Both the position numbers and the translations under genes were made by a program. A stretch of 64,000 bases of DNA from a virus: the IMG/VR virus record IMGVR_UViG_3300025312_000002, positions 18,512-82,511 of that record; one strand, given 5' to 3'. Shown one piece after another: positions 18,471-38,274 of this stretch. The notes under the pieces were generated by a model. It saw only the letters and a list, made by a program, of their open reading frames with translations, was not told the DNA's origin and ran no database searches. The first letter of the stretch is position 1. Each line of letters opens with the position of its first letter.

Positions 18471-18952
18471 ATTACCTCCTTTAGTTTTCTTGTTAAGCTC
18501 AAAACTTTTTGAGCTTCTTGTTTTCCTCTTTGGCTAGTTATTGGCCACCCCTTGTAAAGAATTAACGCCAATGTTAAATTTCCTTTGGTTTGGATCAGTT
18601 TGTTTGCCAGGATATGGCTTCCTTCTAATGTATTGGCTGTCAATGATTCGAGTCTTGCCGGTATCTGCATCAATCCCCGATAATTCTTGCTGCTTATTGC
18701 TTTGGGTTGGAATCCTGATTCCGAGTGCATTAATGCTAGGATAAGTTCTTTTGAAATTCCTGTCTGAGTTGCTGAGATTGATACAGCTTTTGCTATCCGC
18801 TCTCCTGGATCGGGCAATCCCGCTTTGATTGCTGCTAGTCTCAATGTTTCTGTTGTTTTCACAGCCATCATTACTGGTGTTATTGCCACACTCATTATGT
18901 GTGTTTGATAGAGTAGGGCTGTTAATAGAATTATTACCAAAATGGGTTTCAT
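18467..18952 (-). CDS. lytic transglycosylase (SLT domain) with N-terminal signal/anchor
   Basis: LALMHSESGF, AISSKNYRGLMQI, ALILYKG. Confidence 0.85.
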   Translation of the reverse strand: MKPILVIILLTALLYQTHIMSVAITPVMMAVKTTETLRLAAIKAGLPDPGERIAKAVSISATQTGISKELILALMHSESGFQPKAISSKNYRGLMQIPARLESLTANTLEGSHILANKLIQTKGNLTLALILYKGWPITSQRGKQEAQKVLSLTRKLKEVI

Positions 18953-23604: not shown

Positions 23605-24960
23605 CTACATCCAACCTTGATCCATGTAAGTGCAAATACGTTCTCCTGAATGCTCAATTAAAAATCTATGGCTAACATCCCAAAGGTCATAAATAATAAC
23701 ATCTTTCTTATCCTTTGTTACTCGTAAGCCTCTTCCGATTGTTTGGAGCGTTCTGATTTCTGATTTCCCTCCCGCAGCATTGATAATCACGTTAAGAGAA
23801 CGGATAGAAATTCCTTCATACCATATTACTGTCGAAATAACGCATTTGATATGTTTAGCATCTAGTGCTTCTTTAGTTTCCACACGCACATCATTGCCTG
23901 TACTCCCTTGAACAAAAAGGATAGGTAGGTTCTTCTCTCTCCCAATTTCAAGTAAATTATTTCCGTGCTCAATGTGATTAACAAGAATGAGAACGCTGTC
24001 ACCTTTATTAACATGTTCCAGAGCTTTATCAATAATCAGATTGTTTCTTACTGAACTGTGGACAACCCCTTCTGCATAAACGTCTTGATATTGTCGCAGT
24101 TCATTAACAGAATGATTTTTAGGCACTCTGAGAAGGCTTATAACAGGCTTTGCAATAATGCCTAAGTCATTGCCTTCTTGAACTGATAAAGAAGCTACAA
24201 GAGGCCCTATAAGCCCTTCCGAGGCAAGTTTTCCTTCTTCTGTATCAATAGGAGTAGCAGTTAAACCAAATCGTAAAGGTGCAGGCAATTTCGTAAGTAT
24301 GTCAAAATAATCCGATTTAAAGGAATTACAATGATGGGCTTCATCCACAATGATCATATCATAATCGTCTTGATTGACCTTCTTGAATGTTTGACGGGTA
24401 GCAATTGTTATTTGCTTATTCAATTCTAGCTTCCCATCACCTACTAAACCTATTGAAGTGAAACCAAACTTCTTGAATTCGTTTGCTGTTTGGATCATTA
24501 AATCCTTTGTGTGACAAAGCCAAAGGAGTTTACAATTATCGAAACAGGAGTAAAGGGCAATCCCTATTATGGTTTTTCCACTGCCTGTGGGTGCTTGTAT
24601 GATTCCTCTCTGGGCAACACAAGCTTGTTGGATTAACTTTTCCTGATCTTCTCTTAGGACTAGATTTTTTACTTTGTACTTATGATGCTGAATAGGTGCA
24701 GATATGCCTAAACTTTCAACTGAGAGCGTCGGCAAGGGGCTTATCTTTTTTAAATGAGCAATGACCCTAGGCAGCAATCCTGTAAGGAAATAATATGATC
24801 CACTATCATCTTTAGTTAAAGATGATTTTTGGTACTCTTTTCTTATTTTCCTAAAAGCTGTTTGTTGGTAAAAAACAGATGTGTAAGATAAGATGGGTCG
24901 GATTAAAGTTGCTGTTTTTGCATCTACTTTACATTCTATTGGATTAAGATAATTAATCAT
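23605..24960 (-). CDS. SF2 DEAH helicase (UvsW-like)
   Basis: APTGSGKT, VDEAHH, GLTATP, QTIGRGLR. Confidence 0.92.
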   Translation of the reverse strand: MINYLNPIECKVDAKTATLIRPILSYTSVFYQQTAFRKIRKEYQKSSLTKDDSGSYYFLTGLLPRVIAHLKKISPLPTLSVESLGISAPIQHHKYKVKNLVLREDQEKLIQQACVAQRGIIQAPTGSGKTIIGIALYSCFDNCKLLWLCHTKDLMIQTANEFKKFGFTSIGLVGDGKLELNKQITIATRQTFKKVNQDDYDMIIVDEAHHCNSFKSDYFDILTKLPAPLRFGLTATPIDTEEGKLASEGLIGPLVASLSVQEGNDLGIIAKPVISLLRVPKNHSVNELRQYQDVYAEGVVHSSVRNNLIIDKALEHVNKGDSVLILVNHIEHGNNLLEIGREKNLPILFVQGSTGNDVRVETKEALDAKHIKCVISTVIWYEGISIRSLNVIINAAGGKSEIRTLQTIGRGLRVTKDKKDVIIYDLWDVSHRFLIEHSGERICTYMDQGWM

Positions 24961-24962
24961 TG

Positions 24963-25208
24963 TTACTCCTTTGCTGCTGTTATGGCATCAATTGTTTCTT
25001 CAAGGGAATTTTCTGCTTCGTCCATACTGTCTATTGCAGATTGCATTTCTTCCCCCCGTTCCGCTTGCTGTAGTCCTTCTGGAAGATTATCGTATGCTTC
25101 TTGTTCCCCGTTTCTAATCTCTCCCAATTGGTTTTTAATTTCATCAAGTTTATCGCTCAATTGTTGAAGCTGTGAACGTCTAGATTTATTCATGGTTTTC
25201 CTTTCCAC
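24963..25208 (-). CDS. acidic helical phage protein
   Basis: EQEAYDNLPEGLQ..RGE motif common in phage hypotheticals. Confidence 0.6.
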   Translation of the reverse strand: MERKTMNKSRRSQLQQLSDKLDEIKNQLGEIRNGEQEAYDNLPEGLQQAERGEEMQSAIDSMDEAENSLEETIDAITAAKE

Positions 25209-25421
25209 ACCTTTCGGTGTTTGTCAAAAATGCAATCTGTATCATAACTACCATTAGGGAAGAAGATAGAAAATGTGTCTTTTTCTTTTGGAATGATAGC
25301 AGCTACAGTTTTTATAGGATCGCTAAATATATCATGTTCAAAAAATATGGTTTTAACTGTTATATCTTTTAAAAGAATCACGGCAATTTCTCCTTTTATA
25401 TTATAACCTCTTTTTTCAAAG

Positions 25422-25724
25422 CTAGAAACTCCGAGAGAATTCTTTTAGTTCTTCTATTACAGAAAATACTTTTTTAAATGCCCAACCTTGATCTCGAAGC
25501 ATTTGACGGATTTTCATATGTCGCAGTTTTCCATTTCCTAAAAAACAATCATCTGCTGCTTCAATGAAAATATCCAGAGCTTGTTTAGCATCTTCAGATA
25601 GACCTTGCAAAATTTGACTTCCAATAAGAATTGATTCCGGAGTTTCATTTGAAACTAAATTAGCATCTTCGATAGGAACAAATTCTCCAAAATAAACATT
25701 AGCAGCCATTTCTAAATCCATCAT
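25422..25724 (-). CDS. hypothetical protein
   Basis: ORF in operon with SD. Confidence 0.55.
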   Translation of the reverse strand: MMDLEMAANVYFGEFVPIEDANLVSNETPESILIGSQILQGLSEDAKQALDIFIEAADDCFLGNGKLRHMKIRQMLRDQGWAFKKVFSVIEELKEFSRSF

Positions 25725-26077
25725 AGTGTCCTCCTTTTCTTCAAAATGATTGATTTAACTTCTGCCTCTGCACGTTTTCTCAACACAGGTTTTGGGACAG
25801 CAAAATCATTGATTGCTTTTTTCTGCTTGCAGGTTTTACATCCAATAGACTCATGCTTTTGGGATGATAAACAAGCTGTTATATCTTTCCAACAAATAAA
25901 TATATCACACCAAAAGATTGTTGCAGCAGAAAAATGTTCACATCTTTTATTATGCTTATCAAACATATTGTCTTTTGAAGGACAATATCTTGTTTGATAG
26001 ATAATAGCTCCTTTCCCATTCCTGCTATTTTCTCGCAGTTCTGCTTCTTGGAATTTCTTACAATACTGACAGGACAT
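25721..26077 (-). CDS. Cys-rich hypothetical protein
   Basis: Multiple CxxC, basic tail. Confidence 0.55.
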   Translation of the reverse strand: MSCQYCKKFQEAELRENSRNGKGAIIYQTRYCPSKDNMFDKHNKRCEHFSAATIFWCDIFICWKDITACLSSQKHESIGCKTCKQKKAINDFAVPKPVLRKRAEAEVKSIILKKRRTL

Positions 26078-26299
26078 TTCCTTTCCTCCTATTCCAATTC
26101 ATAATTTTTCTGTTTGTTAAATTTCCGAGGAATTTTTGGCACTTCCCTTTGGATTTTAAAGTTGTCCTTCTCACCTGAAAAATAATTTCTGATTGTCCAG
26201 TGAATAACACCCAGCTTTTTTGCCAAGGCGTTTGTCAGAGTCATCCATTCCTGTCCTTCGGGGGCATGTCTATATAAGACATGAGTTTCCCCTTGGTAG

Positions 26300-26482
26300 T
26301 TAAATTCGCCCTTGAACAAATCGTTTTGTCGGCTCATTGCTCTCAAGCTCTTCCAGCACTTTAACTATCCCTTGACGTATCAAGGCTGATTTGCTTGTGG
26401 ACATTCTTTCAACTTGGAGATCAAGTCGATCATCTAAGCTTTCTGGCAATCTCAAAAAAATACTTTTTCCTGTGCTTTTCAT
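26300..26482 (-). CDS. ribbon-helix-helix transcriptional regulator
   Basis: IFLRLPESL..L..S KSALIRQGI pattern. Confidence 0.7.
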   Translation of the reverse strand: MKSTGKSIFLRLPESLDDRLDLQVERMSTSKSALIRQGIVKVLEELESNEPTKRFVQGRI

Positions 26483-26688
26483 CTGGTTCTCCTTTTAAGG
26501 TAGTTGATGGTAAGTTATTCTTCTTCATTACAAATGGTTTCAAGCTGTGCTTCTGTCACACCTTGCATCAAAGCAGGAAACTCTTGTTTTAAGGCAAGGT
26601 AAAGGATTGTAAAAGGCACTTCTTCAACACCTTTAGACATAGCAAGCTTATTAAAAACGATCTCAACAGCTTCTTTTAAATTCATATT

Positions 26689-28873
26689 TCACCCCTTTGC
26701 CCAAATGATAGATTTTTCAGTTCTGTTCAACTCAATTGCTTCATGCTGGGCTTTTTCTTCTGTAGTGAATGATTTGGCTATTGTGTATTTAAGATAATCA
26801 TATACATGGGTTTTAAAAGCTATGAATCTTTCGGTTTTGCTTTTGTAATGCTCTTTAAAATTAATTTCTTTTTCCATTAGCTTCCCCTTTTCTTTAATGT
26901 GGGTTTAACTTCTTTTCTTGATTCCATAAAAGCAATCATGTCTTTTTGTTCTGACGGATGTTTCTTCCAGTAATCAAACCAGTTCTTCGTTCCGGGAACT
27001 AATTGCTGAAAAGCAATCTTTTCTTCTTCTTCAAGTATTCTTTTGGTTCTCATGTCTTCACCTGTAATCAAGAATATAATTACTAGCTATCAATTGTCAA
27101 GGTACTTTTTCAATTCATTATCTTTAGCAGCAATTCTCCAGGTGCAGTTATTGTGTTTAGGACTTCCTTGAAATACACCGGGCTTTTCAAAGTCAACACA
27201 ACTAAATTCTGAATGGGAATTTACTGATGGAACATTTATTACTTTTATTTTTCCTACTTCTCCTGGCTGAATAACAACTTCTGGGTTTCCTCCATAAGAG
27301 GAGTAATATGCAGTTATCGGCTTTGTTATTGTGACTTTATCTCCCACTTTAAATTTTGTCATTTTTCCTCTCCTTCTTAATTGGTTTAAACATCGTATTT
27401 TCGGGAATCACAATGCTTGAAAGAATCTCTCCCATTATATGTTCCCATATACATGTAATCTCCGGCAAAATTCTTATCCTCCAGATTTATTGTTAATCTT
27501 CCTTCTGCAATAGCTTGATTAAATGCTTCATTTGGATTTCTATTTGTATACTCTTTTTTCATAGACTTCACCTTATTTTTTAGTATATTAATCCAGCTAA
27601 AAAATCTCCTTCTTCTACTGATAGCTTTCCTACAAACCAAGGAAAAATTTCCACATTGTAAAACACTTTCTTTTTGAAGGTAATGGTTGTTTCTTTTCTG
27701 ATATACAAAAGAGCTCCAATTAAAGACTCATAACCCATTCCTGAATCTAAAGCACCCGTTTTGAGCATTTCCTTTGCTTCGGTTTTTAATGCTCTTAAAG
27801 AAGAAAACCCAGACAGCTCTGTTGCTGCATATCTACACTTTCCTCCTCCCCAACAATTTCCATAAACAACTCCTGTTGCTGAATAACTTTTGCTCATTTT
27901 CTTTTCCTCCTTTCTGGTTGATGGTATGCCCCTCTACGAGTTAAAAAACAACACCACATATGCCAACGCACCAACCCCCAGGAGCAAGATCACGCCCCCG
28001 GCAATGTCCCGCCACGAGTATTTTGGCAAGGGGTCCATGTACGGATGCCTCATATTTTTTAGCTCATTTTTTGTCATTGGTATGCCCCCTTTTCAGCAAG
28101 TACCCGTTCCATTAATTCAAGATCCCTCTGCGCTATTTCGATTTGATTTTTCTGCCGCCTTATCATCGCCTGTAATTCTTCCTGTGTCCTGTCCCGCAAT
28201 CTATCAATAAAATGTTTCATGGTATGCCCTCCTTGTCATCGTTTGATTTTCATTCTCCATTATATCTAACAAAAGCTTCTTGTGTTTTTGCTTGGGAAAT
28301 AAAAGCAAAAGGAGGCCAATGCCTCCACCTTCCTAAAATCATTTTTAAGCAAGCACCCCTTGTTTGCCAATCTGTCATTATAGAATATTTCTCATTCATG
28401 TTTTTTGTCCAAACTCTATATATAATTTTCTTCTCCTTTCATTAGCAGTAGGTATCATCCCACAATTTGATTTCATCCTTCTCATCCATTGTCAATGTTT
28501 TTCCCTCTTGGAGCAGAGTGTGAATGTGTTGCAAAACCAGCAATTCCGTTTCCCTTTGTTCTTCTGATTTTTCAATTTCTAGGGACTTTTTTGCTAATCT
28601 CACAAGAGTATCAATAGTTACAAACTCCATTTCATTTCTCCTTTTACATCTCAATATAAAGCGTTTTTAAATAGCTGTCAGTTCTTCTGAATGGATCAGA
28701 CAGATCACCCTCTTTTGATCGGACAAGGCATTTTTCTTTTCATATTGACAAAAGACAGGATTAAAATTCCCGATCGCTTCTGCTCGGAGCACTCGCTTTA
28801 TTGTTTTTATGAGTTCTCCGGGTTCAAAATAGTTTTCTCCTTTTTTCCGAACTTCTACAGTATGGCGTTTCAT
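26689..28873 (-). other. run of small early hypothetical genes (26689-26877, 26877-27071, 27090-27362, 27386-, 27580-27897, 27934-28077, 28074-28220, 28442-, 28667-28873)
   Basis: Tightly packed minus-strand ORFs mostly with AGGAG-type SD. Confidence 0.6.
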
Positions 28874-29349
28874 ATTTTTCTCTCCTTCTCTTTAAGGTTG
28901 GCTTTTCCTTTCTTTACTTTGAAAATAGGATAAGGAGCTTTCCCACTTTCAAACCAATCATCACCAAAACAATAAGTTTTAGGCCCAAGATTATCAGGAG
29001 ACATTAAATCCCCTGCACCAGGAGCACAGGGAGAACAATAAGCACAACGGGTGTAGAAAGGTGATCTGAGTATGAAAATATCCATATCATCATAATCCTG
29101 GGTGCAAATGTAGCCTTCTTTTTCATACTGAAAACCGTCTGCTTCACAATCAGGACACTCGTCATATTGAACATCACCACTACTGTCGGGCTTGTGTTCA
29201 CAGTTTCCACAAATGTAAATAGGTTCTGAACTATCTGCCCACACTTGAAGAACTTCCTTTTGGTTAATAACTCCATAATGAATAATTCCTGTTTTTACAT
29301 CTACATTTGTTGTTCCATTTCCATAGTGATCTACAAGTTCTTTTTTCAT
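28870..29349 (-). CDS. Cys-rich early protein
   Basis: CGNC, CPDC, CAYCSPC; start after extended SD at 29349. Confidence 0.65.
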   Translation of the reverse strand: MKKELVDHYGNGTTNVDVKTGIIHYGVINQKEVLQVWADSSEPIYICGNCEHKPDSSGDVQYDECPDCEADGFQYEKEGYICTQDYDDMDIFILRSPFYTRCAYCSPCAPGAGDLMSPDNLGPKTYCFGDDWFESGKAPYPIFKVKKGKANLKEKERKI

Positions 29350-29430
29350 TTTTATTCTCTCCTTCTCTTTATTGGGAACGTAAATGTTCCAGCGAATTGC
29401 AAAAGTTTCCCTTTGCAATTCAAGCAACAT

Positions 29431-29709
29431 TTACAGACTCTTTAGAACCCAGGACAGGAAATATTTGAGCCACTCAAAACCTTTTGGAGCAGAAACACTT
29501 ATTCCTGTTCTTACTTTTCCATCATGACAAAGTACAGCAGTTGAATAATTCTTCCAAAGAGCATAATTTTTGTTGAGTGTATAATACCTATACAAGATTT
29601 TCCCGTAGTAAATCTTTTTGTGGTTTGCATGTAAAACTATTTTCATTCCTTTTGGGTAAAGAGCTGAACTTATTTTATGCCAATTTTTATTTCTTGCTTT
29701 ATGTTCCAT
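29431..29709 (-). CDS. hypothetical early protein
   Basis: ORF with SD. Confidence 0.5.
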   Translation of the reverse strand: MEHKARNKNWHKISSALYPKGMKIVLHANHKKIYYGKILYRYYTLNKNYALWKNYSTAVLCHDGKVRTGISVSAPKGFEWLKYFLSWVLKSL

Positions 29710-29723
29710 TTTCCTCTCCTCCT

Positions 29724-29936
29724 TTAAAACATTGAATGAAGTAGGTCCAGGAAGTCCTGGGCTTCTTGCTGTGAATTAAAACCCCCAAAATTGAAGCTGT
29801 TAGTTTCATTGTACCAACCTTTAACACTCCAGATTCCGGGATAGGCGGCACTTTCTTCCACAGTAAACTCCTTGAGCTTTGCCAGAACAACACTGGCTGT
29901 TTTCTTTCTGTTCCATGCTACTCTCTGTTTTAGCAT
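29724..29936 (-). CDS. hypothetical early protein
   Basis: Start after extended SD at 29936. Confidence 0.55.
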   Translation of the reverse strand: MLKQRVAWNRKKTASVVLAKLKEFTVEESAAYPGIWSVKGWYNETNSFNFGGFNSQQEAQDFLDLLHSMF

Positions 29937-30017
29937 TTTCTCTCCTATTCTTTTGTTGGGAACATAAGTGTTCCAGGAAAAGCACATCTGTTTCTTGATA
30001 TGCTTAACCCGCAGCAC

Positions 30018-30224
30018 TTATATTACTGACGATTCTTCTAAAATAAAATCAGGACATTGTTTTCTAAGCTTCTTGTGGAATGCTTTTTCTTTCATCGAGG
30101 AAGATGTTTGTATTGGCATTGTACTTCCTTCCTGATAAACAGCAATGTATAATCCCATTTCATACTGCTGAGTAATGAACTTGTTTTTTCCATCAGGAGC
30201 AGGAATAACGGTTATCATGGACAT
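30018..30224 (-). CDS. hypothetical early protein
   Basis: Start after SD at 30224. Confidence 0.55.
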   Translation of the reverse strand: MSMITVIPAPDGKNKFITQQYEMGLYIAVYQEGSTMPIQTSSSMKEKAFHKKLRKQCPDFILEESSVI

Positions 30225-30278
30225 TTCTTTTCTCCTTTCTTGAATCATAAATTTCCCAGGGAAATCTAAATAACATCC

Positions 30279-30722
30279 TTATGGCATCAAACCTTCTTCT
30301 CGAAAACTAAAAACTGCATCATCTAAACCCAAAATGATATGATCATACACACTAATATCCAGTGCTTTTGCAACATCCGCAATCTGTTTGGTCATCCGAA
30401 TATCAGATTCAGATGGGCGTAAGTGACCAGAAGGATGATTGTGTACAAGGATCATGGCACATGAGCAGGAAACAATGCTTGTTTTTATGACTTCTCTTGG
30501 GTAAATACCAGCTTGATTTAATGAACCAACAGCCACTTGCACACAATTCAGCACATTTTGTGCATTTAGATGGAGAACAATGAATTTTTCTACATCAGAA
30601 TCTTGCAATGATCTACAAAAGTTTAGTGTATCTTTAGTAGTTCCAAGAGTTTCTCGATTGTATGGAAAATCCTGCTCCCTAACCATTCTTGTTTGCAACT
30701 TTACAGCATACTTGGTTGTCAT
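30279..30722 (-). CDS. RadC-like JAB domain protein
   Basis: E.F.VLHL, GSLN..YPREV, HNHPSG..PSESD, DHIIL. Confidence 0.92.
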   Translation of the reverse strand: MTTKYAVKLQTRMVREQDFPYNRETLGTTKDTLNFCRSLQDSDVEKFIVLHLNAQNVLNCVQVAVGSLNQAGIYPREVIKTSIVSCSCAMILVHNHPSGHLRPSESDIRMTKQIADVAKALDISVYDHIILGLDDAVFSFREEGLMP

Positions 30723-30803
30723 TTTTCTCTCCTTCTCTTTAGTTAGTCCTTAATTGGACTATCAAGCTCTCTACTCCTCCAAGTAAAGAGCAAGACACTA
30801 CAA

Positions 30804-31640
30804 TTAATGAACCATCTCAAACGCTCTTGCAATAGCAGGTTCCAATTCAGCTCTTCTTACTTCTGAAGTAACATTGTGGGTTACAAACTGTGTTAAAACA
30901 GAATTGAAATCCCACATTGTAGCTTCACCTTGAGAAATTGCATCAGGTAAAAGCAGATTTGAAGAAATCTCCGGCAATTTTTCGATTTTTTCCTTTTCTC
31001 CTCCAGAAAAGGGAAGAGCCTCCCACATAGCTTGATATGTATCAGCCGTCAATTTCTTTTCAGCCCACTGCTTCCACAATCCTACTTGATCGGAATAGGA
31101 TTGCATTCCGTCTTGTATGCTTTTTGTTAATTGTTCGGGATCAAGTGATAGGATGTGACGCTTGGCAAACTTGCTGAAAGTTTTACCTACTGCCATCCCG
31201 TTTGAACACACAATCCTGAAAGCTCCAAACATCGAAATATATTTCCAACCTAAATCGTAGGATGTCCGGATTGTGATTTGGGGGTTAACAAAATCATCTT
31301 TTTTAATCTCATACTTTGTATCACCCATTAAAGCTTTGATTGACATCTTGCCTCCATCAGCAATAATATTGGGTTCAACTGTGATTGTCCCAAATTCAGG
31401 AAGTTTAGCTACAGAATCTTCCACCATTTTGATAATATCTTCATAGTGGACAACTCTGTACTGATCAGAACAAATTCCAAACACAGTGTTTGTGTTCTGA
31501 TCTACAATAGCTTTCTTTCCATCAATCCTGAATTCAGGACGCTTCCCAAACCAAACAGGCTCCAATACAGGATCAGGAAATTCTAGTGTTGCATACCTTG
31601 TTCTTACTTCCATTCTTTGTTCTTGTGTTAAACTTTCCAT
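30804..31640 (-). CDS. DUF932-like protein
   Basis: S..Y.VV, TSYD, FRIVCSNG..H motif. Confidence 0.75.
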   Translation of the reverse strand: MESLTQEQRMEVRTRYATLEFPDPVLEPVWFGKRPEFRIDGKKAIVDQNTNTVFGICSDQYRVVHYEDIIKMVEDSVAKLPEFGTITVEPNIIADGGKMSIKALMGDTKYEIKKDDFVNPQITIRTSYDLGWKYISMFGAFRIVCSNGMAVGKTFSKFAKRHILSLDPEQLTKSIQDGMQSYSDQVGLWKQWAEKKLTADTYQAMWEALPFSGGEKEKIEKLPEISSNLLLPDAISQGEATMWDFNSVLTQFVTHNVTSEVRRAELEPAIARAFEMVH

Positions 31641-31677
31641 TTTTCTCTCCTTTTCTTTAAATTGTTTTTACACCTCC

Positions 31678-31736
31678 AGCAAGACTTTGGACTTGCTTGT
31701 GCATTAGCAGGAATTTTGCTATTCCTGCCCATCTGC
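31678..31736 (-). ncRNA. candidate twister ribozyme (permuted, P5-type-like), copy 1
   Basis: GCA-GA-UGG-[P1 GCAGGAAU/AUUCCUGC]-UAA-UGC-AC-[P4 AGCAAG-U-CCA-AA-GU-CUUGCU]; UGG/CCA and AC/GU pseudoknots. Confidence 0.65.
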
Positions 31737-32458
31737 TATTCAGTTACTGTGCTAAGTACATGAATTGTTCTTGCTCTCCATTTGTTGCCTGCTTTGTGAA
31801 TATCAATTATTCTGGCTTTTACTTTAATAATTTCATCCCTATTCCAGTCAAAAGCAGCTTGATAAGAAGGCCAAAGGTACCAACCGGGATGGCATTCTGT
31901 ATCTGCTGTGGAAAATACTTCACATCCGTAGATTCGATCATTAACTAAAAATTTTCCTGCTATTGGAGAAGTTCTTAATCTATATCCAAACACATAAGCA
32001 TCATCCACTTCTTTGAAATCAGAAACATCAGCATTTGGAATATTATTCGGATCAAGGCAGGTTTTTTCTAAGTTTGCACCCCACAAGTCTGCATTCCGCA
32101 AGTTTGCACCCCACAAGTTTGCATTCTGCAAGTTTGCATTCTGCAAGTCCGCATTCCGCAAGTTTGCACCCCACAAGTCTGCATTCCGAAAGTTTGCATT
32201 CTGCAAGTCCGCATTCCGCAAGTTTGCACCCCACAAGTCTGCATTCTGCAAGTTTGCATTCTGCAAGTCTGCATTCTGCAAGTTTGCATTCCGAAAGTCT
32301 GCACCCCACAAGTCTGCATTCTGCAAGTTTGCATTCTGCAAGTCTGCATTCTGCAAGTTTGCATTCCGAAAGTTTGCATTCTGCAAGTTTGCATTCCGCA
32401 AGTCTGCTTCCGGCACACTAAAAAGCACTGCTCCAGTATTTTTATGCTTGATTTCCAT
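31736..32458 (-). CDS. pentapeptide repeat protein
   Basis: A(D/N)L(R/Q/W)(N/G) repeats encoded by 15-bp tandem units. Confidence 0.92.
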   Translation of the reverse strand: MEIKHKNTGAVLFSVPEADLRNANLQNANFRNANLQNADLQNANLQNADLWGADFRNANLQNADLQNANLQNADLWGANLRNADLQNANFRNADLWGANLRNADLQNANLQNANLWGANLRNADLWGANLEKTCLDPNNIPNADVSDFKEVDDAYVFGYRLRTSPIAGKFLVNDRIYGCEVFSTADTECHPGWYLWPSYQAAFDWNRDEIIKVKARIIDIHKAGNKWRARTIHVLSTVTE

Positions 32459-32495
32459 TTTTCTCTCCTTTTCTTTAAATTGTTTTTACACCTCC

Positions 32496-32554
32496 AGCAA
32501 GACTTTGGACTTGCTTGTGCATTAACAGGCTGTTTCCACAGCCTGCCCATCTGC
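32496..32554 (-). ncRNA. candidate twister ribozyme, copy 2
   Basis: Same core as copy 1; P1 replaced by GCAGGCUGU-GGAA-ACAGCCUGU. Confidence 0.65.
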
Positions 32555-32557
32555 TAT

Positions 32558-32998
32558 TTATTTGTTGATTGGAAAATGTTTTTGCTTTTCCTTTACTGCT
32601 TGGATAAACAGTAAATACAAAGCAATACGTTCTTTTGGTGTGTTGTGGGGGGTGAGTATTTTCTCAATAGAGGAATCCCATTCCTCTATTGAGTGTATTT
32701 CACACCCTATTTTCACAAACCCTTGGGAATATTCATTTGCTATGAATATTCCACTGCTCACTAATATGCTGTTGTTTTTTCTAACAACAACATTATTGCC
32801 AAGCTCAACATTATTGCCAAGCTCAACATAATTGCCAAGCTTAACACCTTTGCCAAGCTTAACACCTTCGCCAAGCTCAACATAATTGCCAAGCTTAACA
32901 CCTTTGCCAAGCTTAACACCTTTGCCAAGCTTAACACCTTCGCCAAGCTTAACATCTACTACATCTCCACCAGGATTCGTGTGCTTCTTGTTTTCCAT
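32558..32998 (-). CDS. hexapeptide (left-handed beta-helix-like) repeat protein
   Basis: V(K/E)LG(K/E/N)x repeats, C-terminal IGCEIH.IEEW; start after extended SD. Confidence 0.75.
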   Translation of the reverse strand: MENKKHTNPGGDVVDVKLGEGVKLGKGVKLGKGVKLGNYVELGEGVKLGKGVKLGNYVELGNNVELGNNVVVRKNNSILVSSGIFIANEYSQGFVKIGCEIHSIEEWDSSIEKILTPHNTPKERIALYLLFIQAVKEKQKHFPINK

Positions 32999-33072
32999 TT
33001 TTCTCTCCTTTTCTTTATGAAGCAGAATTGCTCCAGCAAATGCTCCTCCGAGAAGGAGCATTTAAGCAACAA

Positions 33073-33699
33073 TCATGCAACCGTTCCTTTGTAAATCCCA
33101 TGTACATCCTTAACAATCGTAATTCCATGCAACTTTTTAAGATCATCAAAATGGCGCATAGTTCTCATCCAAAGGTCATAATCAGGTAAAGCATTCTTAT
33201 TCAACCCAACATCATTGATGTGCTTTAGAATGTCCACTTTGGACATCCCTGCTTGTAAACAAACATCAATAGCAGCCGCTTGTGTTCCTTCAACATGACC
33301 AAATCCTACCTTAACACGCCCAGAAGGTCTTCCTGTTCCTGTTTTCGACGCTTTCGGAGCTGATTTTGCTGCTTTCGATTGTAAAGCACATTCCGAAGTT
33401 TTTGCTTTGCAGACAGCCGTCGTATCAGGAAAATCTTTTTCGCAGGCGGAACAGTACTTAGAATCAGGATTATAACACTTAACATCCTTACCCCATTCAT
33501 CCTGCAATTCTTGACAAGCATTACTTGGGCATTCCTGATTTGCAGAATTTTCCGAGGAAGTCTCGTCAACAACCTTTGGAGGCAGAGCATTTTCAGCGGT
33601 TGTAACTGCAAGCTGAATCCGCTCAAGAGTCCAAAACTTACTGACTTTAATTCCAAGTTCATCTGCACGATCCATCAACTTCTTTTTCGCTTCATCCAT
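33073..33699 (-). CDS. hypothetical early protein with Cys cluster
   Basis: ORF with extended SD. Confidence 0.65.
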   Translation of the reverse strand: MDEAKKKLMDRADELGIKVSKFWTLERIQLAVTTAENALPPKVVDETSSENSANQECPSNACQELQDEWGKDVKCYNPDSKYCSACEKDFPDTTAVCKAKTSECALQSKAAKSAPKASKTGTGRPSGRVKVGFGHVEGTQAAAIDVCLQAGMSKVDILKHINDVGLNKNALPDYDLWMRTMRHFDDLKKLHGITIVKDVHGIYKGTVA

Positions 33700-33781
33700 T
33701 TTCTCTCCTTTTCTTTAGTTTTGGAGTATAATTACTCCATCAATTCCTCTATCCCAAAGGATAAAGGAAAAGATGCAATCT

Positions 33782-34498
33782 TCATGCTCCGAGCTGTGCA
33801 GCAGACTTTGAATTTCCATTGCCTATTGGACGTGACAAATTAACTCTGTGTCCATCATCTCGACCTCTTGAATAAGCAGCCGAATCTTTCCCGATAGAGA
33901 TACTTGTCATCTTGAGGTTTGGGTATTGCTCCTTCATAAATGAATCCAACTCCTTACCTTTGACAACCATCAACTCTTTACAATCACTCGGGATAAACTC
34001 TTCCCTACGCGCAAAGAGATCATCCAACCTATCCTTTAAAGTCATAGTCATCCCAAAAGCGTAAGTGTTAGCAGAATTTTTGTTGGAATAATATTTGCTT
34101 TCACTCATTTTTCCAACAGTCCTTCTCAGGTATTGGAAAAAGAAGATTGCAACATCCAAATCACCTTTCGTTCCCAGAAAGGAGAAGCCCCAAATGTTTT
34201 TTACCCATTCAGTTCTTCCAACAATCTTACAATCAAAAACTTTTGCAATACATCCTGCAAGATTGAATTCCCAATTCACTCTGACACCCTCAGCTCCATC
34301 AACATCAATTTTGACAAAGTTCTCCGATTTGTTGATATTAGCTTTGAGATCAGCAAATTCCAGGGAATAATCAGCCATAAGCTTTGCTGCCATTCTTTTT
34401 GCGCTTTCAGCTTCATTGCTATTGGAATTCTTATCATCATTCCCAAGCTCCAACAACTTCAAAACCTTTTGGATCATTTCTTGCTTCTTGTTTTCCAT
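33782..34498 (-). CDS. DUF2786-like protein
   Basis: KVLKLLEL..N.NEAESA..MA.KLM..Y; C-terminal AY.RG..G. Confidence 0.8.
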   Translation of the reverse strand: MENKKQEMIQKVLKLLELGNDDKNSNSNEAESAKRMAAKLMADYSLEFADLKANINKSENFVKIDVDGAEGVRVNWEFNLAGCIAKVFDCKIVGRTEWVKNIWGFSFLGTKGDLDVAIFFFQYLRRTVGKMSESKYYSNKNSANTYAFGMTMTLKDRLDDLFARREEFIPSDCKELMVVKGKELDSFMKEQYPNLKMTSISIGKDSAAYSRGRDDGHRVNLSRPIGNGNSKSAAQLGA

Positions 34499-34696
34499 CT
34501 TTTCTCTCCTTTTCTTTAGTGGAACATAATCGTTCCAGAATTGCTTCATACCTTAGCATGAAACAACTCCGCAATGATTACTTTTGGATGATTTTGTAAA
34601 TGAAATATGCAAGTACATAGCTGATTCCAAACAGAACCAGAAAAGCAAGACTGTAGCCCATAATCACTTTACTGCAAAGCATTGTGTTTTCCATTG

Positions 34697-34876
34697 CTAT
34701 TCTCCCAGGGTCTGTGCAAGGCCATTTATTTTCCGACACTCTTCTTGAACAACAGGGTGCCAAACAGGATTGATTTCTGAGCCAACGACATATTCCTTGT
34801 GAGCCCACATTCTGAATTGTTTTTCCTCTTTGTTCGACAAACTACGAAACATTGGATTATTACTTTTGTATTCCAT
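34697..34876 (-). CDS. small early protein
   Basis: MFRSLS..EEKQFR.WA..WHPVVQEEC; extended SD. Confidence 0.6.
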   Translation of the reverse strand: MEYKSNNPMFRSLSNKEEKQFRMWAHKEYVVGSEINPVWHPVVQEECRKINGLAQTLGE

Positions 34877-35528
34877 TTTTCTCTCCTTTTCTTTTTCATA
34901 AGTTTCCCAGGACAATTACTGTAATTGTCCTTTTGGGATTCAAGCACCTCAATAGACATCCGAAAAGATGTATATTCAAGAACTTGGGATATGAACTCTA
35001 TCTAAGCAGTTCATACCCTTCAGCCCCAAAGAAAAAAGAGAGAGAAAACCCTACCCATCATGTTGTTCCTTCCTTCCGGTTCGCTGCAAGCTCAAAAACT
35101 TTAAGAAAACCTTTGGAAATCCTGTCAATTCAGGCGCATTCTCGGGAAACTACCCTTCCCTGCTTTGGATCAATTTTGTTGTAGGACGGGACTCAGGCTC
35201 ACTGGAGGCTACTGCCTGACGACATAAAAGGGAAACAATGTCATCATCCCCTTATGGGTGCAAGCTGTTTATTCAGGAAAAAATCCTTATTGACAACTTA
35301 CAGAATGAGAAAGACAATTGAAGTGGGCAGCACGATTATTACCTGTTTCACCCTTACTTACATGGGAAAGTGTTATCCTGTATCTCATGTTTTCATGAGC
35401 GCTGATAATAATCTAAAGAGCCTTGACTATGACACGGATAAAGTGTCATAGGAACGTGTCAATCGCACGTCCTATAATTGATAACCTCTTAAAATATTGA
35501 CTATCAATTACCTATCTAATATACGCCC

Positions 35529-35557
35529 TATATATATATAGTCTATTTCGTTGTCAA
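35529..35557 (-). promoter_or_regulatory. strong leftward early sigma70 promoter
   Basis: TTGACA-N17-TATATA with A-tract upstream. Confidence 0.7.
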
Positions 35558-35736
35558 GCGTTTTTTTTACTTTCCTTAGTATTTCTTTTGGAGCTCAATT
35601 ATTTCCTATACATAGCAAGGTTTATGGGCTTCTAATATAACAAATTCCGAACTCGTAAAAACCCCAGCAAAATTACACAATTTACCCTTTGCTCCACTTC
35701 TCGGCCCTGAATTCCTGCTCCAAAACCTGAAAATGC

Positions 35737-35833
35737 AAGCTGCTAACTTATTGATTTTGCTAAGATATAAAATGCATAGCAAAATCAATAAGTTAGCAGC
35801 TTATGAATAAAATCAATAAGTTAGCAGCTTATG
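35737..35833. repeat. 26-bp perfect inverted repeat plus 25-bp direct repeat, each unit containing IHF consensus
   Basis: AAGCTGCTAACTTATTGATTTTGCTA (35737-35762) / complement (35777-35802); AAAATCAATAAGTTAGCAGCTTATG at 35781 and 35809. Confidence 0.85.
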
Positions 35834-35884
35834 TCCAGTATAGCCCCTAGCTATAAAAAATATATCAAAATGCAAAGAAAACGC

Positions 35885-35914
35885 TTGACATCCTATATAA
35901 TAGCATGATAAAGG
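35885..35914 (+). promoter_or_regulatory. possible rightward promoter
   Basis: AAAACGCTTGACA, mirror of the leftward -35 context; -10 weak. Confidence 0.4.
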
Positions 35915-36072
35915 AAAAGCGTAAAAAATAATGATCTTTGACAATAAGCTTTTGATTGCAAGAAACTGCACTCAGAACGATATATTGAGAAAGGAAACAA
36001 GCAAGCTCTAAATGCTTGCAAAAGCCTTTTTACGATACTGTATAAACAAACTATGAGAAAAGGGGAAAAATC

Positions 36073-36414
36073 ATGACAAAAATCGTAAAAAGAGGCGAAA
36101 AAGGGAATTTGATTGTCGTATCAGGTGATGCTAGTGATAATGCGATTAGAGCGTTTTTTTCTAAAGCGTCTGTTACTAACTATAGACTCAAAGAAACCTC
36201 TAAAGTGAGCCAATGCAGTGTCATTAATAACATGATCAAGGCTGAGAAAAAAATTTCTGAGATTGCAACAAAATTGATCAGTATGAAGTTATTCCCTGCT
36301 AATCCTGAAAAGTACGAAGGGCAGGAAGAAACAAGGATTTTTAAAGCTTGCGTGCAAAGAGTCAACACGCACTTAGCAGCAAGCAGAGCAAGGGGAATTG
36401 ATTTGAGAGCATAG
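36073..36414 (+). CDS. isolated basic hypothetical protein
   Basis: 113-aa ORF with SD, own promoter and terminator. Confidence 0.65.
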   Translation: MTKIVKRGEKGNLIVVSGDASDNAIRAFFSKASVTNYRLKETSKVSQCSVINNMIKAEKKISEIATKLISMKLFPANPEKYEGQEETRIFKACVQRVNTHLAASRARGIDLRA

Positions 36415-36422
36415 AGTAAACT

Positions 36423-36460
36423 AGGGTAATATCAAAGATAAATGATATTGCCCTTTTTCT
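36423..36460 (+). terminator. intrinsic terminator
   Basis: AGGGTAATATC/GATATTGCCCT stem followed by T-run. Confidence 0.7.
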
Positions 36461-37084
36461 TTGCCTAAAAAACAGGAAAAGAAGACCTCATAAACACCTA
36501 AAATTAGCAATTCTTGACAACAAACCTAAGCATAAAACAGGGTAAACGATAGAAGACAAAGGTAAGAAAAAATAAAGCCTTTAAGGGGCATTAGAATTGA
36601 TTGCCCTCTGTATTGCAGTGATAGCAAGGATTGTAGAAGGTAAAAAACGAGGTAAATTTGAGTTATCAACAGCCTAAAACAGCCTAAAACAGTAAACTAC
36701 CCTCTTAAAGGCACTTTTAAGGCGCGGGATAGGCTAATATAGCTAATAGATAGCTGCAAAGAAAATAGAGAAAAGCTCAGGTCTAAAAGAAGGAAAAGAG
36801 TAAAAGGGGAAGCATAAGAGTAAAAGGGAATAGATACTGAGAAGAAAAGGAAAGATCGTAAAAGCTTTTGAAGAAGTGATGCTAAGAGAAATGTAAAAGA
36901 GAAAATATAAATGTAAAAGAGAAATGACTAAGCAAAATGCTTGAGAGTCTTTTTCCCCTTCTTTTATCCTGTTCTTCATTCCAGAATAGCATAATGATAT
37001 ATATTTGATAGTCAAGGCAGGGTAAAAAACAAAAAACCTAGTAATATCAATGAAGTTTACATAATGTATCTTATAGGACGCAAC

Positions 37085-37171
37085 ATCTAAGTCCCTGTTA
37101 TCATTACCTTAGTGTTTAACTGTCTGTTATCATTCCCTTCGTATCTAACTATCTGTTATCATTAGCTTTCC
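37085..37171 (+). repeat. three 29-bp tandem repeats
   Basis: Core CTGTTATCATT at 37095, 37124, 37153. Confidence 0.8.
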
Positions 37172-37687
37172 ACCCCCCTCGATCTATCTGGATATGGGGG
37201 CGGAAGTTTTTTCAGACAGGGACCACCCCACAATTTATTTCCCATTACTACTAGCCCTTCTTACCTATTCCGTTCTATTAAAAGGAGTAAAACCATACTC
37301 TACTATCTAGAGCAATACATCTATTCCCGACTCAATATAAGATTCCCAGAACAGAAAAGAAACAATTGCTTCTATCTCCTCTACTGCTCTGTTTGGAACA
37401 ATGTATATTCCAATTGCATAGAACACTTAAAAATGAAACCCAAAGACAATAAAATAAAAGAGCTTAAAATACTCAACCTTCCCCTCTGTAGTTTGCAAAA
37501 TTTTATTTCTTTAAATCAAGCACTTACAAACGGGTCATTTTTACCTGTTATCCTTTTTCACTATCGTTAATTTTAACGGAAATGCAGTTTTATGATATAA
37601 TGCTTTTACAGGAAGATTTGACATTAAGTGTCCGTTGTGTTATCTTGCTCGTGAATAAATTTTTTATTGGAAAAGGAATCTTGATTA

Positions 37688-38274
37688 TGGGAATGGACTT
37701 AACTAAAAACAGTTTTGATTTTAATAAAGGGGACATCCGAGAAGGGATGAAGTTGTTTGCCTGGGATGGGATACAAGATTGCTCTGCTGTCCTCTGCTGT
37801 GTTTTTGATAAGTGTTTGTTTCTGAAACGCGGGAAGTGTGCAGTGCATGTAAACTATATCCGTCAACTTACAGACACAATTGCTTGTTCTTATAAATACC
37901 TTGATGAGATGCAGTATTTTAAGATTGGGATGCAGATAGTTCCTTTGTATTCCCATTTGCTTAGATTGAAATTACTCGAAATGTCTTTATCTCAAATCGT
38001 GTTTGAGAATAATAAAGGGATTAAGTTTATTCATCCTGTGTATAAAGAGATAAGGCAGACGTTAATCACAATTCATATGATGTGGAAAGACTTGGAAATA
38101 ACTCCACACATAGCAGACCCTTCATTAGTTCCTCTTTCTTCTAGCAAGATGGAATCCGATCATCTGAAAAGCGAAGAGGATATGATGTTGAATGGAGACG
38201 GGACACATTATGAGCGGATTTCTCAATTAAGTGAAACTAATCCCGACGGAACGCGGAAAAGGAAGATTCGATGA
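37688..38274 (+). CDS. probable terminase small subunit
   Basis: Directly upstream of terL; IHPVY motif reminiscent of P27-type TerS; start uncertain. Confidence 0.55.

Follow-up and report, generated by a model that had tools for sequence, protein, structure and literature searches.

Two Twister-P5 elements, likely self-cleaving ribozymes, on either side of a pentapeptide-repeat gene in the operon of an uncultured phage

The 64,000-nucleotide stretch of DNA analysed here (hereafter, the window) corresponds to positions 18,512 to 82,511 of the IMG/VR virus record IMGVR_UViG_3300025312_000002, and within it a direct repeat flanks a single minus-strand gene for a pentapeptide-repeat protein. 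Each copy of the repeat holds a member of the catalogued Twister-P5 family (Rfam RF02684). We consider it likely that the two are genuine type-P5 twister self-cleaving ribozymes, situated in an operon of a complete 82.5-kb phage and punctuating its message. Family membership, fold, pseudoknot complementarity, covariation, junction placement and conservation of the slot ahead of the DUF932 gene are matters of direct observation; cleavage at both U/A sites, with an effect on mRNA stability or translation, is the predicted outcome. The arrangement is already known from other phages and the pair adds two members to a catalogued ribozyme family, so that its value alone is modest, such a setting having been proposed for phages since 2011.

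Identification and structure of the two elements

The twister class is reportedly owed to Roth et al. 2014, a paper cited in PMC6765202 and PMC5408937. Rfam and PMC5408937 list the class together with its type-P5 permutation. The whole window was scanned against Rfam at gathering thresholds, and the sole matches were to Twister-P5 (threshold 37.6 bits), one in each copy of the repeat. Both matches run end to end, from position 1 to position 58 of the 58 in the model, with 49.6 bits for copy A and 48.0 bits for copy B (E-values on the 64-kb window of 2.5e-07 and 6.8e-07, respectively). The remaining 18.6 kb of the phage genome returned no Rfam match, and a covariance model of our own (R1, described below) found no further twister copies in the phage genome. 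A lax Rfam search of positions 24000-38000 (E up to 1) yielded no other credible ribozyme, the miRNA, sRNA and rne5 rows lying far below their gathering scores. In 12 related loci (125.7 kb) all 88 of the 88 matches at the gathering score were likewise Twister-P5, and their range of 41.9-66.2 bits makes the two scores obtained here typical. The elements of both copies are as follows.

32496..32555, minus strand: twister A, type P5 (RF02684, 49.6 bits, 32555-32498; own model R1, 74.0 bits, 32555-32495)
32554-32552 with 32521-32519, minus strand: P2 of twister A (Rfam alignment and minimum-energy fold)
32551-32550, minus strand: conserved GA of twister A
32549-32547, minus strand: T1 strand UGG of twister A, complementary to CCA at 32508-32506
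32546-32525, minus strand: P1 of twister A, 9 bp with a GGAA loop
U32524/A32523, minus strand: predicted cleavage site of twister A (UAA position in the Rfam alignment and sequence count)
32518-32517, minus strand: T2 strand AC of twister A, pairing with GU at 32503-32502
32515-32510 with 32501-32496, minus strand: P4 of twister A
32509-32502, minus strand: loop L4 of twister A, UCCAAAGU
31678..31737, minus strand: twister B, type P5 (RF02684, 48.0 bits, 31737-31680; R1, 74.8 bits)
Copy A coordinates less 818 nt, minus strand: the corresponding elements of twister B
31728-31707, minus strand: P1 of twister B, 8 bp with an AGCAAA loop
U31706/A31705, minus strand: predicted cleavage site of twister B (Rfam alignment and sequence count)

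Read along the minus strand, both copies conform to GCA-GA-UGG-[P1]-UAA-UGC-AC-A-[AGCAAG-U-CCAAAGU-CUUGCU]. In the Rfam alignment the order of strands, P2(5')-T1-P1 hairpin-UAA-P2(3')-T2-P4 hairpin, is that of the type-P5 permutation. With Twister-P5 (clan CL00120) the copies share P1, P2, P4, T1, T2, the UAA junction, the GA and the L4 pattern G-U-NNN-A-A-G-N-C, as well as the connectivity: loops close P1 and P4, and the two termini occupy the place of P5. A P5 helix was not evident in the flanks, for which no systematic search for P5 pairing was made. The copies depart from the Twister-P5 consensus at the third T1 pair (U-A in place of G-C), at the first T2 pair (A-U in place of G-C), in the length of P2 (3 pairs in place of 4) and in the base before T2, which is present in the consensus and missing here.

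The UGG and CCA strands of T1 are complementary in copy B as they are in copy A. Both copies retain the conserved GA, the UAA and six L4 bases (G, U, A, A, G and C), which are invariant or nearly so in our alignment of related twisters (148-150 of 150 rows); they also retain UGC in P2, likewise invariant or nearly so there. PMC5408937 gives about ten twister nucleotides as conserved at >97%, in L1 and L4 and at the adenine that follows the scissile bond; our own check took the Rfam consensus and the 150-row alignment as its reference. The 71-nt elements fold with z = -3.45 and -2.97 (200 shuffles); for both, P2 (3 bp), P1 (9 and 8 bp, plus a G-U pair added by the fold) and P4 (6 bp) appear in the minimum-energy fold and in the centroid fold alike. 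For copy A, the same three stems are retained when the element is folded in a 150-nt context.

The repeated unit and its layout

A repeat search of the window returned a two-copy direct repeat of 112 nt with 90% identity (31634-31745 and 32452-32563), which base-by-base comparison narrowed to a unit of 107 nt with nine differences (32558-32452 versus 31740-31634).

32452..32558, minus strand: repeat copy A (107 nt), comprising twister A, then a 37-nt leader that bears a Shine-Dalgarno sequence, then the opening 7 nt of the pentapeptide gene
31634..31740, minus strand: repeat copy B (107 nt), comprising twister B, then the same leader sequence, then the opening 7 nt of the DUF932 gene
32459..32495, minus strand: leader after twister A, which holds the 18-nt motif AAAGAAAAGGAGAGAAAA
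31641..31677, minus strand: leader after twister B, with the same sequence as the one that follows twister A

All nine differences fall within the 22-nt P1 hairpin (32546-32525 and 31728-31707), a clustering with a hypergeometric p of 1.5e-7 (106 positions counted). Between the copies both sides have changed in three P1 pairs (C-G to A-U, U-A to A-U and G-C to U-A), one G-U pair has become G-C, and one U-A pair has become an unpaired A/A that opens into the loop. The stop codon upstream of twister A (UAA, 32560-32558) is located 3 nt ahead of P2, and in the one upstream of twister B (UAG, 31738-31736) the G already belongs to P2, as its first base. Translation of the next gene starts at 32458 and 31640, in each case 65 nt past the corresponding predicted cleavage site. 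Both twisters are thus found between co-oriented minus-strand genes, with a single gene between them, and a repeat with this twister layout is far beyond chance.

These measurements bear out much of a preliminary description of the same DNA, which had noted a ~107-bp direct repeat flanking the pentapeptide gene, copies differing almost only in P1 through compensatory changes, and sites near a stop codon and ~65 nt before the next start (the stops are 0-3 nt from the ribozyme start). Its assignments of P1, P2, P4, T1, T2 and the U/A sites agree with the Rfam alignment of both copies, and the Infernal search with Rfam twister models that it had suggested gives the full-length Twister-P5 matches reported above.

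Covariation among related twisters

Related sequences were collected with a degenerate pattern in which the conserved letters were fixed and four positions (both sides of the third T1 pair and of the first T2 pair) were left free together with the stems. This pattern matched 74 stretches in viral contigs and at least 120 in metagenome contigs; prokaryote assemblies taken as one genome per species held only 13, all of them in metagenome-assembled genomes and spread over many phyla. Among the 232 unique matches listed, the free T1 position forms a Watson-Crick pair in every one (G-C 191, A-U 20, U-A 15 and C-G 6), and at the free T2 position 231 have a pair (A-U 176, G-C 46 and G-U 9), the remaining match having A-C. 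P1 is represented in these listed matches by 220 distinct sequences, with a mean of 6.9 consecutive pairs versus 0.93 in chimeric controls, and P4 by 6.0 consecutive pairs versus 2.0. On a crude count in one fixed register, the outermost P1 position is unpaired in 23 of the 232.

The covariance model R1 was built from eight gap-free sequences and gave 238 matches in 683 kb, from which an alignment of 150 matches (131 distinct rows) was made. Paired cells amount to 98.5% in this alignment, versus 69.1% in shuffles and 31-42% in slid controls, and the covariation score is 0.737 versus 0.166, a level reached by 0 of 500 shuffles. Neither pseudoknot had been in the model; across the distinct rows T1 is 100% and T2 99.6% paired, and all 3 pairs of T1 show two-sided changes. 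Family-wide pairing of P2, P1 and P4 is 100%, 96.5% and 99.2%, with two-sided changes in 2, 8 and 5 pairs, respectively. The first T2 pair is A-U in 104 of the distinct rows, G-C in 24 and G-U in 3, and the Rfam-consensus base between P2 and T2 is missing in 146 of the 150 aligned matches.

In related phage and metagenome twisters, then, AC/GU is the majority form of T2, and UGG/CCA is a covarying minority form of T1. The AC/GU T2 and the 3-bp P2 emerge as the usual form in phage-borne type-P5 twisters, and since the three-pair P2 and the missing base before T2 are the norm among the members on phage contigs, neither is peculiar to the two copies described here. This alters several points of the preliminary description. 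It had spoken of a permuted twister variant: the permutation is real, and it is the catalogued type-P5 one, not a new variant. The AC/GU T2, regarded there as a deviation, is what most relatives carry. The P2-T2 linker is indeed one base shorter than the Rfam consensus, without being unusual for that. Only the third T1 pair, U-A, is uncommon (4 of the 131 rows), and it covaries perfectly. Homologues that break the T1 and T2 pairings had been named as evidence that would speak against a ribozyme, and the pairing counts of the listed matches (232 of 232 for T1 and 231 of 232 for T2) are of the opposite kind.

Junctions occupied by twisters in distant relatives

Distances to neighbouring genes were taken with a simple caller of open reading frames (ORFs; at least 60 amino acids, first start codon). 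Among 165 related twisters with flanks of at least 450 nt, 160 have the stop of a same-strand ORF no more than 400 nt upstream, and in 104 of these 160 that stop lies within -5 to +9 nt of the ribozyme start. The next ORF starts at a median of 31 nt past the pattern. Pfam families could be assigned to few of the ORFs downstream of related twisters (150 of 185 searched): DUF7168, DUF2786 and Radical_SAM were each found 4 times, DUF932 3 times and RadC once, and most ORFs were unmatched.

When the operon proteins were compared by tblastn with the twister loci, homologues of the DUF2786/DUF7168 protein were found at 12 loci (40-51% identity) and homologues of the DUF932 protein at 12 loci (34-54% identity); RadC and three operon proteins without a family were matched as well. 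The pentapeptide and hexapeptide genes had no homologue in the twister loci examined by this means. Gene order varies among the relatives. The junctions ahead of three of the shared genes compare as listed below. The tallies were made by hand from tblastn and model matches and include near-duplicate loci from different samples (L005/L051, L021/L031 and possibly L051/L181), so that they represent fewer independent lineages.

Before DUF932: twister just upstream in 7 of 9 evaluable loci, 45-67 nt from the start; in this phage, twister B
Before DUF2786: twister just upstream in 8 of 12 evaluable loci; in this phage, a long hairpin
Before RadC: twister just upstream in 2 of 2 evaluable loci; in this phage, a long hairpin

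Some relatives carry twisters in arrays. Five IMG/VR loci (L024, L051, L031, L072 and L047) hold 8-15 Rfam-scored Twister-P5 copies in 12-15 kb, with 11-15 copies in each of the first three, and Twister-P5 is the only Rfam family to attain its gathering score in these five. The phage described here differs from the array loci in having two copies only, in their near-identity and in the presence of hairpins at its other junctions. A literature search found no description of phage twister arrays beyond reviews; it missed Roth 2014, Weinberg 2015 and Felletti 2017, and coverage in print is therefore possible.

The operon and its hairpin junctions

The genes around the two twisters, in the order of transcription, are the following.

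33782-34549, minus strand: gene for a DUF2786/DUF7168 protein, first of those listed
33073-33699, minus strand: gene without a family
32558..33061, minus strand: hexapeptide-repeat (left-handed beta-helix) protein, 167 amino acids (Pfam PF00132, E = 5.9e-14), with its stop 3 nt before twister A
31736..32458, minus strand: pentapeptide-repeat protein, 240 amino acids (Pfam PF00805, E = 5.3e-61), the bracketed gene
30804..31640, minus strand: DUF932 protein, 278 amino acids (Pfam PF06067, E = 4.5e-13), starting 65 nt past the predicted twister B cut
30279-30722, minus strand: RadC gene

The C-terminal ~100 amino acids of the pentapeptide-repeat protein have no family match. A helicase gene lies further along the minus strand, and a terminase gene on the opposite arm. 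The leader motif AAAGAAAAGGAGAGAAAA (up to 2 mismatches) stands ahead of ten consecutive minus-strand genes, from 34894 to 28876, and when up to 3 mismatches are allowed it has 12 matches across the window versus 1.05 expected. Its conservation is well above what Shine-Dalgarno pairing needs. No promoter-like or terminator-like sites were found beside either twister on the minus strand, and this, together with the shared leader, makes one transcription unit plausible, the genes of the operon being plausibly co-transcribed.

Six other junctions of the operon are occupied by hairpins.

34515-34580, 33715-33784, 33015-33075, 30736-30806, 29950-30020 and 29365-29433, minus strand: long irregular hairpins, from folding

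Each is ~55-65 nt long and has the upstream stop codon within its outer stem, with z between -3.1 and -6.2. All six show a UGGA motif on the 3' side, which is preceded by GC in two of them. At a seventh junction (30224-30290) no significant fold was obtained (z = 0.45). In their modelled folds the six hairpins look like RNase III-type processing sites. The early transcript of phage T7 is comparable in that RNase III processing hairpins between its genes serve as cutting sites, with mRNAs capped by hairpins as the product; the twisters differ from these hairpins in needing no host enzyme and in the chemistry of the RNA ends.

In three relatives (L053, L039 and L138) a similar long hairpin was seen just ahead of the leader at junctions that have no twister (minimum-energy fold, 146 nt). 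The slot between stop codon and leader is thus filled by a twister or by a hairpin interchangeably, which supports the view that both elements serve to cut or insulate the message. Natural 'swap' data come from the DUF2786/DUF7168, DUF932 and RadC junctions, each of which is found with one element or the other, and argue that both do the same job.

Proposed processing and competing explanations

In the arrangement that we propose, a leftward polycistronic RNA would be made in which each ribozyme would fold co-transcriptionally into P2, P1 and P4, would be locked by T1 and T2, and would cut the UAA junction between its U and A. Of the two products, the upstream one would then end with the P1 hairpin and a 2',3'-cyclic phosphate, and the downstream one would begin with a 5'-OH placed 8 nt ahead of the P4 hairpin, within a 65-nt 5' untranslated region that would be identical after both cuts. 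As judged from the sequence, the two twisters would probably cut a long early message into pieces. The pentapeptide-repeat gene could reasonably be expected to be released as a single-gene mRNA, and the DUF932 gene and those after it would acquire a defined 5' end, uncoupled from the upstream RNA.

A precedent comes from prophages, in which hammerhead ribozymes stand on either side of single genes (among them ardA, an anti-restriction gene) and cleave in vitro and in E. coli; around ardA of Agrobacterium tumefaciens a triple hammerhead is found (Perreault et al. 2011, PMC3088659). Processing into single-gene mRNAs was proposed for these hammerheads (PMC3088659). In that system, as in the present one, self-cleaving ribozymes surround one gene or a short block of genes in a long phage transcript, and the same role is proposed; the ribozymes are hammerheads there and twisters here, and cleavage is demonstrated there and predicted here. 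Among DNA mimics are ArdA and also some of the pentapeptide-repeat proteins (Qnr/MfpA type). By analogy, ardA and the pentapeptide gene may be a similar kind of bracketed gene, and the bracketed gene may act against host defence. Bacterial twisters are described, in two reviews, as sharing gene contexts with hammerheads and lying near phage genes (PMC6765202, PMC8782182), and the first of these adds that they may process polycistronic RNAs, which could yield transcripts of differing stability or translation efficiency, the purpose being left undefined there (PMC6765202). A pair of twisters that differ only in P1 offers ready-made constructs for testing the effect of ribozyme cutting on expression.

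Several points weigh against the proposal. P2 consists of three pairs only, and the minimum-energy fold of copy B in a 150-nt context loses P4, as CUUGCU pairs with GCAAGA of the upstream ORF; the centroid keeps P4. The U-A form of the third T1 pair is rare (15 of the 232 listed matches), and we know of no tested representative of it. The exact-variant pattern had 0 matches in viral contigs, a 4.4-kb blastn query matched none of 50,697 phage records, and a search for relatives seeded with the DUF932 and DUF2786 proteins confirmed 0 of 7 and 0 of 3 candidate stretches; with no close relative found, conservation rests on distant relatives, reached through the degenerate ribozyme pattern. A twister stands at only 2 of at least 10 leader-sharing junctions, so that ribozyme cutting is not the general solution of this operon. 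The leftward operon is presumably early, as judged from gene order alone. Finally, a 5'-OH end may mark an RNA for decay, as with the product of the glmS ribozyme and RNase J1.

This last point leads to an alternative that we regard as unlikely, in which active twisters would limit expression: the cut would remove a stabilising or coupling upstream context and expose the 5'-OH to a host nuclease, so that the pentapeptide and DUF932 products would be timed or lowered. The structural evidence fits this equally, and degradation of the glmS cleavage product by RNase J1 offers a model for it. The differing transcript stability or translation efficiency allowed for in the review would also accommodate it (PMC6765202). 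However, the layout looks protective, since P1 closes the new 3' end and P4 lies 8 nt in from the new 5' end, and the strong Shine-Dalgarno sequence, which neighbouring genes have in identical form, suggests good translation.

A different emphasis comes from the history of the pair. Among 202 within-locus pairs of related twisters, the twister-plus-leader pair of this phage is the only near-identical one: the 45 nt after P4 are 0.98 alike, the next best pair reaching 0.69. The near-identical leader, the restriction of divergence to P1 and the lack of homologues of the bracketed gene suggest together a recent duplication of a twister-leader cassette at the site of an accessory-gene insertion. 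On the sequence comparison, copy A would most likely have arisen by duplication of the DUF932-leader cassette, or the other way round, as the accessory pentapeptide gene was inserted. P1 would have been re-made after the duplication with its stem kept, and template switching within the hairpin could conceivably be the route. No letter variants were present in contigs over both twisters (30800-33100) from four DNA runs (X10, X12, X14 and X18). Apparent strain variants that joined the RadC or DUF2786 starts to other leaders were rejected, as the contigs proved to be other parts of the same phage, whose similar leaders had aligned at the 80% likeness limit.

It could accordingly be argued that the 107-nt repeats act mainly at the level of DNA, as a footprint or substrate of cassette exchange and a portable ribozyme-plus-leader module, with processing unselected at both sites. 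The singular leader pair would suit this, as would the differing gene order among relatives and the absence from twister loci of homologues of the pentapeptide and hexapeptide genes, which suggests accessory insertion and sets them apart from DUF2786, DUF932 and RadC. What such an account leaves unexplained is the confinement of all nine differences to P1 with the stem kept, which indicates selection on RNA structure. Moreover, 7 of 9 distant relatives (protein identity 34-48%) keep a twister ahead of DUF932, which indicates function. We consider a mainly DNA-level role improbable; exchange of the cassette is compatible with processing by two active twisters and need not replace it.

Processing of the message would place the 3' half of twister A at the 5' end of the excised pentapeptide RNA and the 5' half of twister B at its 3' end. 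The cores are identical outside P1, and P1 falls wholly on one fragment, so that P2 and T1 could form between the ends and re-form one twister; the reverse reaction, or a host ligase of the RtcB type, might then join them into a circular, exonuclease-proof mRNA. Engineered twister-based systems for expression of circular RNA exist, and such an mRNA, if real, would be their natural counterpart. A circular product would also fit the fact that P1 alone was free to diverge. Circular or spliced products were raised for the clustered hammerheads by Perreault et al., who looked for them and report none detected (PMC3088659). A search of the phage for RtcB (PF01139) gave 0 matches, other RNA-end-healing enzymes lying outside that search. 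The re-formed twister would moreover cut again, and nothing in the sequence requires a circular reading, which we hold to be very improbable. The least credible explanation, that both are decayed and inactive twister relics now serving as stable hairpins such as nuclease barriers, could appeal to the short P2 and to the rare T1 pair, and is opposed by the retention in both copies of every invariant or near-invariant position of the 150-row alignment, by two complementary pseudoknots, by scores 10-12 bits over the gathering score and by the identity of the copies outside P1.

The host phage and further observations

The host record is an 82,511 bp virus with direct terminal repeats, rated 100% complete, and represents an uncultured phage with only two twisters. 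Its large terminase had no tblastn match among 50,697 deposited phage records, which points to an undescribed lineage. At least half of the sampled words of 30800-33100 are held by eleven DNA runs labelled as soil or sediment metagenomes, and groundwater-labelled runs hold less.

Directly after P4 of both twisters the sequence GGAGGUGUAAAAAC is found (32481-32494 and 31663-31676, minus strand). It holds a second perfect Shine-Dalgarno-like GGAGGUG, located ~40 nt ahead of the start codon and too distant to serve that codon, and it may serve as a standby ribosome site or be there by chance. It is not general in the family, as inspection by eye shows it to be missing from 13 other sequences with the T1 variant.

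Outside the operon, sub-threshold Rfam rows (mir-8186 at 32.5 bits, MIR1023 and rne5) pile up on ~120 nt at 35711-35831. This region lies in the gene-poor 34.9-37.5 kb between the divergent arms of the genome, and the rows suggest a long hairpin, perhaps in a control or origin region.

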